Positions 12,220 through 16,908 of a stretch of 40,864 nt of DNA are shown here, piece after piece; within the stretch, counting starts at the first letter, position 1, and each line of letters starts with the position of its first letter. The notes under the pieces are model-generated. The model worked only from the letters and a program-made list of their open reading frames with translations. It ran no database searches and had not been told where the DNA came from. A program made the translations under genes and the position numbers. The DNA lies in IMG/VR virus record IMGVR_UViG_2565956716_000008, one strand, 5' to 3'. This DNA is from a virus (taxonomy: Duplodnaviria; Heunggongvirae; Uroviricota; Caudoviricetes).

Positions 12220-13215
12220 GTGACCGTGAGAGCACTACTGACCCCTGAAATAGCCCCGCGTATGGGGATTGTATTGTTCAGACCAGGTTCAGAGCTGATG
12301 CCCCTGTTTATGCAGGGGCGTGTCCTGCTGGAGCCTGAGCCGGAACGTTATTCATCTTTCGCCAGTGGTGCCGTTCCGGCGGCATCACAACCGCTGGCGG
12401 ATGATCCTGCCGTTAGGGCCGTGTTCCGCAATGAGGCAGTGATCCGTCGTGCTGGTGGCGTGGAATGTCTTGAAAGCTGGTTACTTCGTGAAAAAGGCTG
12501 CCAGTGGCCTCATTCCGACTGGCACAGCGAGAACATGACCACAATGCGACACGCGCCGGGCGCGATCCGTCTGTGCTGGCACTGCGATAACCAGCTGCGC
12601 GATCAGTTCACGGAACGGCTGGAATCAATGGCAACGGATAACTGTGCCCGCTGGGTGTTGTCTGTAGTCCGTCGGGATCTCGGTTTTGATGATAACCATG
12701 CCGTGACAATGCCGGAACTGTGCTGGTGGCTGATTCGTAATGACCTGGCGGATGCCTTACCGGAAAGTGCAGCCCGTAAGGCACTGAGATTACCGAAGCC
12801 TGTTGTGCCGTCTGTCACCCGGGAAAGTGACCTTGTGCCTTCGGTTCCTGCCACCAGCATCATCCAGGATAAGGCGAAAAAGGTGCTGGCGCTGAAAGTG
12901 GATCCGGAGTCGCCGGAGTCTTTTATGTTACGCCCAAAACGCCGCCGCTGGGTTAATGAAAAGTACACGCGCTGGGTTAAGACACAGCCGTGTGCATGTT
13001 GTGGAAAGCCTGCTGATGATCCCCACCACCTGATAGGCCACGGTCAGGGTGGAATGGGTACAAAAGCGCATGACCTCTTTGTGTTGCCTTTGTGCAGAAA
13101 GCATCACGACGAGCTGCATGCGGATACCGTGGCATTTGAAGAGAAGTATGGCTCTCAGCTGGAGCTGATATTTCGTTTTATCGATCGTGCGCTGGCAATT
13201 GGCGTATTGGCGTAA
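12220..13215 (+). CDS. DUF968-domain phage protein
   Basis: C-terminal CACCGKPADDPHHLIGHGQGGMGTKAHD...PLCRKHHDELH motif; GTG start. Confidence 0.5.
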   Translation: MTVRALLTPEIAPRMGIVLFRPGSELMPLFMQGRVLLEPEPERYSSFASGAVPAASQPLADDPAVRAVFRNEAVIRRAGGVECLESWLLREKGCQWPHSDWHSENMTTMRHAPGAIRLCWHCDNQLRDQFTERLESMATDNCARWVLSVVRRDLGFDDNHAVTMPELCWWLIRNDLADALPESAARKALRLPKPVVPSVTRESDLVPSVPATSIIQDKAKKVLALKVDPESPESFMLRPKRRRWVNEKYTRWVKTQPCACCGKPADDPHHLIGHGQGGMGTKAHDLFVLPLCRKHHDELHADTVAFEEKYGSQLELIFRFIDRALAIGVLA

Positions 13216-13228
13216 GTGGAGAACGAGC

Positions 13229-13981
13229 ATGAACCTTGAAGCCTTACCAAAATATTACTCCCCAAAATCTCCAAAATTGAGCGATGACGCACCGGCGACA
13301 GGCTCAGGTGGTTTAACGATTACGGATGTGATGGCTGCGCAGGGGATGGTGCAGTCGAAAGCACCGCTTGGGTTTGCCTTATTCCTGGCAAAAGTTGGTG
13401 TTCAGGATCCTCAATTTGCGATTGAAGGTCTGCTCAATTACGCGATGGCACTGGATAAGCCGACATTGAACAAATTGAGTGAAGAAACCCGGTTACAGAT
13501 CATCCCTTACCTTGTGAATTTTGCCTTTGCTGATTATTCCAGGTCTGCGGCAAGTAAGGCTCGCTGTGAGCATTGTGCTGGTACTGGATTTCATAATGTA
13601 TTGCGCGAAGTGGTGAAACACTCCAGAAGCGGGGAATCTGTTATCAAGGAAGAGTGGGTGAAGGAACTATGTCAGCATTGTCATGGTAAGGGAGAAGTCA
13701 GCACAGCGTGCAGAGGGTGTAAGGGTAAAGGTATTGTCCTGGATGAAAAAAGGACCCGGCTTCATGGCACGCCTGTTTATAAGATTTGTGGGCGTTGCAA
13801 TGGAAACCGGTTTAGCCGTTTACCAACCACACTGGCGCGGCATCATGTCCAGAAGCTGGTACCAGACCTGACGGATTATCAGTGGTACAAAGGATATGCA
13901 GATGTCATTGATAAACTGGTTACAAAGTGCTGGCAGGAAGAAGCATATGCAGAGATACAATTGAGAAAGGTGACAAGATAA
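13229..13981 (+). CDS. Q-like late-gene regulator with DnaJ-type CxxCxGxG zinc-finger repeats (tentative antiterminator)
   Basis: position between early genes and lysis cassette, followed by short terminated leader; four CxxCxGxG repeats; GGAG RBS. Confidence 0.45.
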   Translation: MNLEALPKYYSPKSPKLSDDAPATGSGGLTITDVMAAQGMVQSKAPLGFALFLAKVGVQDPQFAIEGLLNYAMALDKPTLNKLSEETRLQIIPYLVNFAFADYSRSAASKARCEHCAGTGFHNVLREVVKHSRSGESVIKEEWVKELCQHCHGKGEVSTACRGCKGKGIVLDEKRTRLHGTPVYKICGRCNGNRFSRLPTTLARHHVQKLVPDLTDYQWYKGYADVIDKLVTKCWQEEAYAEIQLRKVTR

Positions 13982-14087
13982 ATGGTTTTCGCCGAAGATG
14001 ACGACATGATGCTTGCATTTTTCAAAAAATATGGATAAGATTTTCCCAACGATGGGCTTTGTATGTCTACCGTTGATAAGATTTAGG

Positions 14088-14112
14088 AACCCGCCACTGA
14101 GCGGGTTTTTTG
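14088..14112 (+). terminator. rho-independent terminator (tR'-like) downstream of Q-like gene
   Basis: aacccgc-cactga-gcgggtt followed by T-run. Confidence 0.6.
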
Positions 14113-14233
14113 TACCTGTAAACTTGGTGCAGTACAGTAAACACGCTGGTGGTCGTGAATACTGACTTTTTATCTTGCTGGATTTTTAGACAAGGGTTAT
14201 TGGTATGTCATGTTAACCAGAAGGGAAAAAGAC

Positions 14234-14437
14234 ATGCTAAAACAGCAAGATATGACAGAAACCGCCGCCGCAGTCCTTCATTTCTTACCTGCTGACAAGT
14301 GGGTAACGCCACGCATGATGACGAGAACTACCGGAGTAAGCGAAGCCCGGTGCCAGTTAATACTGACTCAGTTAGTTCTGGCGGGTCTGGCGAAGGATAA
14401 CGGCGGGTACGGGAATAAATTCAGACGCTGCCAGTAA
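14234..14437 (+). CDS. hypothetical small protein
   Basis: AAGGGA RBS before ATG at 14234 (track ORF starts 14210). Confidence 0.3.
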   Translation: MLKQQDMTETAAAVLHFLPADKWVTPRMMTRTTGVSEARCQLILTQLVLAGLAKDNGGYGNKFRRCQ

Positions 14438-14587
14438 TGGCGGTTTCCTGCTGTGAAAATGGGCGGCTGGTGGGTGTTGGTAGCACCTGCCAGCCATTCG
14501 CTCATGCTTACTGGTCACAAGCGAACCACGGCCCACTGCTTTAGCGCAAAAGCAGAGTGAGCCTACCAGAGTTACGCTTACTGATCC

Positions 14588-15640
14588 ATGAAAAATACTG
14601 TAAAAATAAACAGTGTTGATTTAATCAACGCTGATTGCCTGCATTTTATTCAGTCCCTGCCTGATGATTCCATTGACCTGATTGTTACCGATCCGCCTTA
14701 CTTCAAGGTGAAACCTAACGGTTGGGACAATCAGTGGAAAGGGGACGAAGATTACCTTAAGTGGCTGGACCACTGTCTGGCCCAGTTCTGGCGGGTGTTG
14801 AAACCTGCCGGAAGCCTTTACCTGTTCTGTGGGCATCGCCTGGCATCTGATATTGAGATCATGATGCGTGAACGTTTCAACGTGCTTAACCATATCATCT
14901 GGGCGAAGCCGTCCGGACGTTGGAATGGGTGTAATAAAGAAAGTCTGCGCGCATATTTTCCTGCCACAGAGCGCGTTCTGTTTGCTGAACATTACCAGGG
15001 GCCATATCGCGGCAAAAGTGACGGCTATGCGGCAAAAGAAAGGGAACTCAAACAGCACATAATGGCACCGCTGATATCGTATTTCAGGGATGCTCGTGCC
15101 GAACTGGGTATAACGGCAAAACAAATTGCCGAAGCCACAGGTAAGAAAAATATGGTTTCCCACTGGTTTGGTGCCAGTCAGTGGCAGTTGCCGAATGAGG
15201 CTGACTATCGGAAGTTACAGGCACTGTTTTCCCGTATAGCGGCAGAGAAGTTTCAGGAACAACAACTGGAACAACCACACCACCAGCTGGTGGCATCTTA
15301 TGATTCACTGAATCGCAAATATTCTGAATTGCTGGATGAGTTTAAATCTCTCCGGCGCTATTTCTCCGTATCAGTCTCCGTGCCTTATACCGATGTCTGG
15401 ACGCATAAGCCCGTTCAGTTCTACCCGGGTAAACATCCGTGCGAGAAACCGGCGGATATGCTCCGGCAAATAATCAATGCCAGTAGTCGACCTGGTGATC
15501 TGGTTGCTGATTTCTTTATGGGATCCGGTTCCACAATAAAAGCAGCAATGGCGCTGGGGCGTCGGGCGTTAGGTGTTGAACTTGAGTCAGAGCGGTTTAA
15601 TCAGACGGTGAAAGAGGTAAGTGAACTGGTGGGGAAATAA
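14588..15640 (+). CDS. DNA methyltransferase, DPPY-motif N6/N4 class
   Basis: VTDPPY motif near N-terminus and FxGSGST AdoMet-binding motif near C-terminus. Confidence 0.7.
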   Translation: MKNTVKINSVDLINADCLHFIQSLPDDSIDLIVTDPPYFKVKPNGWDNQWKGDEDYLKWLDHCLAQFWRVLKPAGSLYLFCGHRLASDIEIMMRERFNVLNHIIWAKPSGRWNGCNKESLRAYFPATERVLFAEHYQGPYRGKSDGYAAKERELKQHIMAPLISYFRDARAELGITAKQIAEATGKKNMVSHWFGASQWQLPNEADYRKLQALFSRIAAEKFQEQQLEQPHHQLVASYDSLNRKYSELLDEFKSLRRYFSVSVSVPYTDVWTHKPVQFYPGKHPCEKPADMLRQIINASSRPGDLVADFFMGSGSTIKAAMALGRRALGVELESERFNQTVKEVSELVGK

Positions 15641-15644
15641 TTCT

Positions 15645-15670
15645 GGTGGCCACGTTGCGTGGCCTTTTTA
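15645..15670 (+). terminator. candidate rho-independent terminator
   Basis: ggccacg-ttg-cgtggcc hairpin followed by ttttta. Confidence 0.5.
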
Positions 15671-15716
15671 TTTCCAACACAGCACCCGCAAATATCGCGA
15701 GGTGAGAGATGACGAA

Positions 15717-16052
15717 ATGCCTCATAACCCAAATACCTGGCCGGACTGGCTGGAGTTGTTTCAGAGCTGGTGGCGTGGAGACACACCGCTGGGTGCAGTG
15801 ATTATGTCGATCGTTATGGCTGGTTTGCGCATCGCCTATTTTGGCGGTGGTGGTGGCTGGAAGCGAAAAACGCTCGAGATTTTGCTATGTGGCGCTCTGA
15901 CGCTGACCTTTGCATCCGCTCTTGAATATGTCGGATGGCCTAAATCGCTTTCTGTTGCCATTGGTGGTGGCGTGGGGCTGATCGGTGTCGATGCTATTCG
16001 TGGGGCTGCAATGCGAGTAATCGGTAACAAATTTGGTAGCTCGAAGGAGTAA
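15717..16052 (+). CDS. holin (lambda S-like, three predicted TM segments)
   Basis: 111 aa, three hydrophobic segments, charged C-terminus, directly upstream of endolysin. Confidence 0.55.
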   Translation: MPHNPNTWPDWLELFQSWWRGDTPLGAVIMSIVMAGLRIAYFGGGGGWKRKTLEILLCGALTLTFASALEYVGWPKSLSVAIGGGVGLIGVDAIRGAAMRVIGNKFGSSKE

Positions 16053-16055
16053 TTT

Positions 16056-16532
16056 ATGCAGGCACTAAATTCCCAGCGTAAAGCTTTCCTGGATATGGTG
16101 GCATGGTCAGAAGGAACGGATAACGGGCGACAACCGACACGTAACCACGGTTATGATGTTATTGTTGGTGGCGAACTGTTCACTGATTACTCCGATCACC
16201 CTCGCAAACTTGTCACGCTAAACCCCAAACTCAAATCAACAGCTGCCGGACGTTACCAGCTTCTTTCACGCTGGTGGGATGCTTACCGTAAACAGCTTGG
16301 CCTGAAAGATTTTTCTCCAGAAAGCCAGGACGCTGTAGCTCTGCAGCAGATTAAAGAGCGTGGTGCTTTACCGATGATTGACCGCGGCAGTATTCGTCAG
16401 GCAATCGACCGTTGCAGCAATATCTGGGCGTCGTTACCTGGTGCAGGTTACGGTCAGTATGAACATAAAATCGGTGACCTGATTGCCCGATTTAAAAAAG
16501 CTGGTGGGGTAGTAAATGAAGCTGAGATATAA
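16056..16532 (+). CDS. endolysin, lambda R-type transglycosylase
   Basis: near-identical by eye to lambda R sequence character (NQRKAFLDM..WSEGTDNGRQ..HGYDVIVGG). Confidence 0.85.
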   Translation: MQALNSQRKAFLDMVAWSEGTDNGRQPTRNHGYDVIVGGELFTDYSDHPRKLVTLNPKLKSTAAGRYQLLSRWWDAYRKQLGLKDFSPESQDAVALQQIKERGALPMIDRGSIRQAIDRCSNIWASLPGAGYGQYEHKIGDLIARFKKAGGVVNEAEI

Positions 16533-16908
16533 GCTGGTTATTGTTGCCTTCGTTGTTAGCGTCATTGGTTCCTTCATCTGGTCTACCGGGCATTACTACA
16601 GCAAATATCAGCACGAAAAGGAGCGTGCTGATGAGGCTGTACGAAATGCTGAATCAGCAACTGCCATTACCCGTAACGTTCTGCAATCACTGCAAATCAT
16701 CAATACAGTTATAGAGGCTAACCAGCATGCAAAACAGCAGATCGCACTGGAGTCACAGAGAACCCAGGAAGATATCAAAGTGGCTGTTGCGGATGATGAT
16801 TGTGCTTCACGTCATGTGCCTGCTGCCGCTGCTGACCGGTTGCGGAAGTACGCGAACAGTTTACGTACCGATTCCGGCGGTACCGTTGCCAGCAAGCCTG
16901 ACTACTGA
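16516..16908 (+). CDS. Rz-like i-spanin
   Basis: N-terminal TM helix then coiled-coil-like region; follows endolysin. Confidence 0.5.
   Translation: MKLRYKLVIVAFVVSVIGSFIWSTGHYYSKYQHEKERADEAVRNAESATAITRNVLQSLQIINTVIEANQHAKQQIALESQRTQEDIKVAVADDDCASRHVPAAAADRLRKYANSLRTDSGGTVASKPDY

Follow-up and report, generated by a model that had tools for sequence, protein, structure and literature searches.

The gene at positions 13229-13981 of the window, by which we mean the whole 40,864-nt stretch of DNA analysed here, is very probably the late antiterminator Q of an SfV-like temperate E. coli phage, a member of the Q-lambda family accompanied by its own PR', pause and tR' unit. That the protein belongs to this family and resembles it in fold was demonstrated directly in our analysis, as were the conserved cysteines, the homology of the cis elements in sequence and the order of the genes. 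The Q gene, its cis elements and the late genes as far as Rz are on the plus strand.

The Q gene

The reading frame encodes a 250-aa late-gene transcription antiterminator of the long form of the Q-lambda family. We place its start at the ATG at 13229 and not at the upstream GTG at 13187 because the homologues begin MNLE... In a Pfam scan, the protein scored 179.9 bits (E=1e-53) on the Q-lambda family model PF03589 (Antiterm), whose cutoff is 26.7, and no match at E<=0.1 was found to Q21 (PF06530) or Q82 (PF06323). PHROG 127, 'anti-termination protein Q-like', covers residues 1-250 (E=1.9e-108). When we searched the PDB sequences with phmmer, the top match was Q-lambda in 7UBM (E=1.5e-37), in which residues 1-120 of the window protein align with lambda 1-125 and residues 160-250 with lambda 117-207. 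Homology to Q-lambda extends over the full length, with 34% identity overall, and by part the global alignment gives 52% identity for the N-terminal 60 residues, 36-38% for the body and 46% for the zinc ribbon. The N-terminal segment (codons 1-60, 13229-13408), which is 52% identical to Q-lambda 1-62, is thus the best-conserved part of the protein; in Q-lambda, the corresponding residues fold onto the flap-tip helix of RNAP and contribute to the RNA-exit nozzle (PMC9388147).

The AlphaFold2 model of the window protein, built with 110 homologues, has a pLDDT of 87 and a pTM of 0.75. With this model as the Foldseek query, the best match was 7UBN_Q, from the NusA-engaged loading complex (E=6.7e-14, TMt 0.74), and all eight significant PDB matches were Q-lambda chains. 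The Q-lambda architecture is present in the protein, with the conserved N-terminal segment, the four-helix body with its helix-turn-helix (HTH), and the zinc-ribbon arm. Lambda E134, where the E134K substitution raises DNA affinity, aligns with R177. An earlier note on this DNA had proposed a Q-type late antiterminator, to be checked by HMM search against the Q families and the DnaJ cysteine-rich domain; PF03589, PHROG 127, 7UBM and 7UBN_Q agree on a full-length member of the Q-lambda family, with PF03589 far above its cutoff and the DnaJ model PF00684 below threshold.

Cysteine motifs and zinc ribbons

The reading frame contains four cysteine motifs, as the earlier note wrote them. Three are exact CxxCxGxG motifs: CEHCAGTG (aa 113-120, 13565-13588), CQHCHGKG (aa 148-155, 13670-13693) and CRGCKGKG (aa 161-168, 13709-13732). 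The fourth, CGRCNGNR (aa 187-194, 13787-13810), is degenerate, its last G having been replaced by R. The motifs are not a product of chance, because their eight cysteines are invariant in 110 non-redundant long-form homologues with identities of 37-98%.

In the global alignment, the window protein differs from Q-lambda by a single 47-residue insertion, aa 111-157. The insertion holds an extra zinc ribbon that is absent from Q-lambda, here called ribbon A (13565-13693), which is made of C113/C116, a beta-hairpin at aa 121-147 and C148/C151; the AlphaFold2 model places the two strands of the hairpin at 121-131 and 137-147. Ribbon B (13709-13810), assigned by homology, is the lambda-type ribbon or 'arm', with C161/C164, a tip at aa 169-186 and C187/C190. 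It is 46% identical to Q-lambda 118-152 with an equal spacing of 22 aa, and C161, C164, C187 and C190 align at identical spacing with the lambda zinc ligands C118, C121, C144 and C147. The arm of Q-lambda is a type I shuffled zinc ribbon (residues 114-152) whose zinc is ligated by two CxxCxGxG motifs, CRDCHGTG and CGRCKGVG (PMC9388147). We also modelled the window arm by itself (aa 105-200, pLDDT 82); when it was superposed on the ribbon of Q-lambda, 40-41 columns fitted at an RMSD of 1.9 A, with 46-48% identity. From the models and the alignments together, the four motifs most likely form two tandem zinc ribbons, in which pairs 1+2 make the extra ribbon and pairs 3+4 correspond to the lambda arm, and the extra ribbon, inserted at the base of the arm, most likely carries a hairpin that is long and variable. 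The zinc stoichiometry of the protein is likewise a predicted one.

Late promoter and pause element

The 130 bp 3' of the Q stop codon align with the lambda PR' region. In this register, the -35 hexamer is TTGCAT (14013-14018), the same hexamer as the annotated phi80 pR' -35, the spacer is 17 nt (14019-14035, TTTTCAAAAAATATGGA), and the -10 hexamer is TAAGAT (14036-14041), which is aligned with TAAATT in lambda and P22 and with TAGATT in phi80. After the gap TTTCCC comes the predicted +1 (14048), where homology points to a sigma-70-dependent pause element (SDPE), AACGAT followed by GGG (AACGATGGG, 14048-14056). In the lambda register, the -35 TTGACT is followed by the spacer TATTGAATAAAATTGGG, the -10 TAAATT, the gap TGACTC and the pause element AACGATGGG. 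P22 has the same -35, -10 and gap (TTGACT, TAAATT and TGACTC) with the spacer TTTTGAATAAAGTTGGG and the pause element AACGATGG, and phi80 has the -35 TTGCAT, the spacer TTCGCGGAAAAACTGGA, the -10 TAGATT, the gap CATCTCT and the pause element AACGCTGGG. The pause 9-mer is therefore the same in the window and in lambda, and in both it is 6 nt from the -10. In the P22 record, the 5' nucleotide of the late RNA is the first A of AACGAT, and a qut site is annotated across it.

Together, TTGCAT and TAAGAT agree with the sigma-70 consensus at just 7 of their 12 positions, and a generic promoter and terminator scan listed neither PR' nor the terminator described below. Because the hexamers are weak against the consensus and absent from the scan, our promoter call leans on homology to known PR' promoters. 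The candidate TTGCAT-17-TAAGAT promoter that the earlier note placed at 14013-14041 is present and shares its register with the lambda, P22 and phi80 late promoters, and the PR'/qut/tR' arrangement proposed there is supported by positional homology to annotated late promoters and by the lambda-identical pause element. The same promoter-pause layout follows the Q genes of distant family members, which a pattern search showed for YeP3 and inspection by eye for Edno5, ST104 and Ehr49.

The spacer is where the Q binding element (QBE) is expected, and by its position in the sequence it is a candidate for that site. It is identical to the lambda spacer at 11 of 17 positions. The 3' part (A-rich...TGG) is common to lambda, phi80 and the window, and the upstream 7-mer, TTTCAAA in the window, differs. 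In the phi80 record, pR' is annotated together with a 7-mer bound by gp17 (Q), which directly follows the -35, and with a terminator some 50 nt further downstream. The differing 7-mer would fit with its carrying the specificity for Q.

We also looked for a CII-type site (TTGCN6TTGC), as in the antisense promoters paQ of lambda and Pa23 of P22, and there is none inside Q; the whole window contains two, which is the chance level.

An exact 10-nt direct repeat, GATAAGATTT, occurs at 14034-14043 and 14075-14084. The first copy contains the PR' -10, and the second, at about +28 to +37, is just 5' of the terminator stem and might act as another sigma-dependent pause element or as a weak second promoter. 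In phage HannyBb, which is 91% identical, both copies have diverged. The HannyBb region homologous to window 13975-14135 (L092, 1176-1345) has AAAGAG for TAAGAT and AATGAT for AACGAT, and the terminator stem at the homologous place is weaker and contains G-U pairs. Either the late promoter has shifted in HannyBb or the signals tolerate much degeneracy. Given its poor -10 and weaker terminator, the promoter and terminator signals are not uniformly strong across the clade.

Leader and terminator

A tR'-like intrinsic terminator is located at 14085-14112, about +38 to +65, as indicated by folding and by the GenBank records of SfV and Ayreon, both of which annotate a terminator at the homologous site. 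The stem is formed by CCCGC (14090-14094) and GCGGG (14101-14105), with a loop at 14095-14100 and a run of six T at 14106-14111, and it can be extended by A-U and G-U pairs from 14086. The hairpin alone has an energy of -10.7 to -13.1 kcal/mol, and for the predicted leader (14048-14115) the folding energy is -21.2 kcal/mol (z = -3.1). The generic scan probably omitted this terminator because extension of the stem into the T-tract consumed the tail. The position is comparable to that of P22 tR', annotated at +31 to +59, and the phi80 terminator is at a comparable distance. The earlier note described a strong terminator at 14088-14112; a hairpin with a T-tract is indeed found there, but 'strong' is generous for a core of only five G-C pairs.

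Nucleotides 1-27 of the leader (14048-14074) form a hairpin in which AACG...CGUU closes GGGC...GUCU(A), and this hairpin overlaps the pause element. An Rfam search of 13900-14700 returned only sub-threshold chance matches, placing the leader in no known RNA family. The related loci in IMG/VR were only copies of 98-100% identity, which are unfit for covariation analysis, and we used phage records instead.

Comparison with known systems and proposed mechanism

The window system shares with lambda (PF03589; PDB 4MO1 and 7UBJ-7UBN) the fold of the body and zinc-ribbon arm, the zinc ligands, and the position of the gene. It differs from lambda in that a second CxxC...CxxC ribbon precedes the lambda-type ribbon, in the upstream half of the presumed QBE, and in the position of the terminator, which is at about +38 to +65 in the window and at about +194 in lambda. 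The Q protein of phi80 (gp17, 269 aa) is also a long form with four Cys pairs and is 40% identical to the window protein, and phi80 has the same TTGCAT -35, a 17-nt spacer and a terminator near the promoter. However, phi80 Q has a longer hairpin between Cys pairs 1 and 2 and a CxC third knuckle, its QBE 7-mer is TCGCGGA as opposed to TTTCAAA, and its pause element is AACGCT. The DNA-binding region of phi80 Q was studied by Guo & Roberts 2004 (J Bacteriol 186:3599), as cited in PMC9388147.

By analogy with the Q-lambda structures (PMC9388147), RNA polymerase would start at PR' (-35 at 14013, -10 at 14036, +1 near 14048), sigma-70 would re-bind the -10-like AACGAT at +1 to +6, and the polymerase would pause at about +16. 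Q would bind the spacer site with both its zinc-ribbon arm and the HTH of the four-helix body, and would engage the sigma-containing paused complex, with the tip of the arm contacting the repositioned sigma region 4, Q contacting RNAP, and the N- and C-terminal segments of Q forming a nozzle on the RNA-exit channel. The polymerase modified in this way would ignore the terminator at 14085-14112 and transcribe the methylase, lysis and virion genes; when Q is absent, a terminated leader RNA of about 60-65 nt would be expected. The conserved N terminus, the conserved ribbon and the lambda-identical SDPE fit the Q-lambda mechanism as it is read across from lambda, and DNA binding, pausing and antitermination are the activities that we would expect of the window protein on the same grounds.

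Long and short forms of the family

We surveyed representatives of the family from a 50%-identity library (P0241-P0390), of which 47 are 195-300 aa long. Two sequences, P0321 and P0387, were left out; they have two motifs at odd spacing and are apparently frameshifted or truncated. Three or four CxxC motifs are present in 32/47 of the representatives and two in 8/47, and when the three-CxxC forms are aligned, their third knuckle is CxC, as in phi80. The short one-ribbon form of lambda and P22 is therefore a minority among the sampled 50%-identity cluster representatives. The earlier note called the domain content of the protein unusual, a description that we would drop, since two CxxCxGxG motifs are already found in Q-lambda and most of the family has the four-motif form. 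Across the family, Cys pairs 1 and 2 are separated by anything from 10 to about 60 aa, the spacing between pairs 2 and 3 is constant (9 residues between them), and that between pairs 3 and 4 is nearly constant (22 between them).

It is possible, although on balance we doubt it, that the protein is a working Q in which the extra ribbon (aa 111-157) alters loading, either as a second contact with DNA or RNAP or by repositioning the arm, with a differing geometry or QBE length. The insertion is at the base of the arm, the part of Q-lambda that touches sigma region 4 and positions 11-13 of the QBE, and the combination of invariant cysteines with a hairpin of 10 to about 60 aa is a pattern typical of a specificity or surface element. 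However, the -35/-10/pause spacing equals that of lambda and P22, which argues for the same overall geometry, and the hairpin of ribbon A is not notably basic. The PDB offers no long-form structure for comparison, in that our search with the window protein returned only Q-lambda chains at E<0.01.

Gene neighbourhood and distribution

The Q gene is at the end of the early-right region, immediately before the late promoter and lysis cassette, and this arrangement is collinear with SfV and Ayreon. Upstream of Q are genes for RusA, a KilA-N protein and a DUF968/HNH (YdfU-family) protein. The DUF968 gene (12220-13215, 331 aa; PF06147, E=2.8e-81; PHROG 96, 'HNH endonuclease') encodes a C-terminal HNH-like nuclease signature, and its stop codon is 13 nt before the Q start.

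Downstream, the start of the presumed Q-dependent late operon (14210-16908) contains a 75-aa ORF, an N6/N4 DNA methylase gene (14588-15640), a holin gene, a lysozyme gene (16056-16532) and Rz (16516-16908), based on Pfam (N6_N4_Mtase and Phage_holin_3_1) and on the collinear annotation of SfV and Ayreon. Terminase and Mu-like tail genes follow the lysis genes, and the lysis and virion set is complete. The 75-aa ORF, between tR' and the holin gene, belongs to PHROG 331 with a weak MarR-like match, and it carries a TrmB-family label in phiSTEC1575-Stx2k. The methylase (350 aa) has an HTH-like insert, and in SfV the methylase gene is immediately followed by a second annotated terminator.

Positions 8001-33000 of the window are 97-99% identical to vB_EcoM-689R6, vB_EcoM-720R4 and Shigella phage SfV. 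Across 13100-14250, identity is 99.2-99.8% to vB_EcoM-720R4, Ayreon, mEp460 and 15 Stx2c-converting phages, and 97.5% to SfV. Taken together, SfV, mEp460, Ayreon, vB_EcoM-720R4, the Stx2c phages and the ydfT/quuQ-type genes of E. coli have essentially the same Q and cis region, at 97.5-99.8% DNA identity. Annotated relatives call the gene antitermination protein Q or late gene regulator; the Stx2c records are without annotation. The segment 13900-14200 is matched in 1790/5426 complete E. coli genomes and is covered to at least 80% in 477 of them, and the 98%-identical protein cluster of the window Q has 3896 member sequences.

Directly after the terminator, Ayreon, mEp460 and the 15 Stx2c phages have about 677 bp more than the window and SfV. 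In Ayreon (L002, 3512-4195, corresponding to about 14112-14140 in the window), this extra segment contains two small hypothetical ORFs and a second annotated terminator. By its appearance, it is a moron-like indel where the late operon begins.

These comparisons bear on whether the gene could be a dead Q homologue, a remnant of a defective prophage like quuQ/ydfT of the cryptic prophage Qin, with cis signals that are non-functional. Some E. coli records do name the same gene ydfT, and the promoter is weak against the consensus. However, the reading frame is intact and every family-invariant residue is present, the locus is 99-100% identical in vB_EcoM-720R4, Ayreon and mEp460, which were deposited as isolated viruses (97.5% in SfV), the pause element is that of lambda, and a complete lysis and virion gene set follows, so we consider a dead homologue very improbable.

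Likeness to DnaJ and anti-TRAP

The likeness of the protein to DnaJ is in its four CxxCxGxG-type zinc knuckles, which are also found in DnaJ (PF00684). The PF00684 (DnaJ_CXXCXGXG) score of the window protein, 30.9 bits, is below the cutoff of 32.7, and the DnaJ models of NCBIfam gave 15-27 bits against cutoffs above 330. Q-lambda also gives a sub-threshold DnaJ_CXXCXGXG match, with 23.1 bits, and because of this we regard the CxxCxGxG motif as a trait of the Q-lambda family. Anti-TRAP models are likewise below their cutoffs and match aa 146-177 only (PF15777, 14.3 vs 32 bits; NF058604 RtpA, 22.9 vs 65 bits), where the spacing from pair 2 to pair 3 resembles that in anti-TRAP (RtpA).

At the level of structure, the zinc domain of DnaJ is a V-shaped fold inside a J-domain protein, and the Pfam scan of the window protein found no J domain. 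DnaJA2 was the sole DnaJ structure matched by Foldseek (E=0.06-0.14), and the global superposition was poor (RMSD 8.8-10 A, TM 0.11-0.35); against the arm-only model, it covered 86 columns at 8.8 A RMSD. The window protein is modelled with tandem ribbons, 1+2 and 3+4, in contrast to the nested 1+4 and 2+3 of DnaJ. The description 'DnaJ-type' in the earlier note is thus apt at the level of the motif, but it does not extend to Pfam membership (30.9 < 32.7) or to fold (DnaJA2 at 8.8 A).

The anti-TRAP-like segment at aa 146-177 prompted us to consider a nested DnaJ-like zinc topology (1+4, 2+3) for the window protein as well. We judged this less likely because motifs 3 and 4 with their loop are homologous to, and superpose on, the single Q-lambda ribbon, because the short forms retain exactly the pair 3+4 unit, CxC variants included, and because the segment 121-147 is modelled as a self-paired hairpin.

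That the gene encodes a DnaJ-like zinc-finger chaperone or redox protein which merely occupies the Q position and does not regulate transcription, as might be read from the sub-threshold DnaJ and anti-TRAP matches and the weak Foldseek match to DnaJA2, is effectively refuted by homology to Q-lambda that spans the full length outside the motifs, by the similar sub-threshold DnaJ match of Q-lambda itself, by the lack of a J domain in the Pfam scan and by the poor superposition on DnaJA2.

Implications

The gene, its family, the mechanism and the cis signals are all textbook matter, and near-identical phages already have them annotated. In E. coli this Q allele with its PR'-tR' unit is extremely common, and records of Stx2c-converting phages contain the allele too, which makes it useful to annotate the promoter, pause element and terminator correctly.

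Only the extra zinc ribbon that marks the long form is under-explored; it may or may not change the geometry of loading. The Q protein that has been studied structurally, that of lambda, is a short form, and the second ribbon present in most members of the family is structurally under-explored. Our tentative suggestion, which we hold with low confidence, is that this second ribbon could be a second 'arm' that makes an extra contact, specific to the phage, with RNAP, sigma region 4 or upstream DNA. If so, the geometry of the Q-loading complex would differ from the only one solved, that of the short-form Q-lambda, and the textbook lambda protein would be a reduced, derived form of the family.
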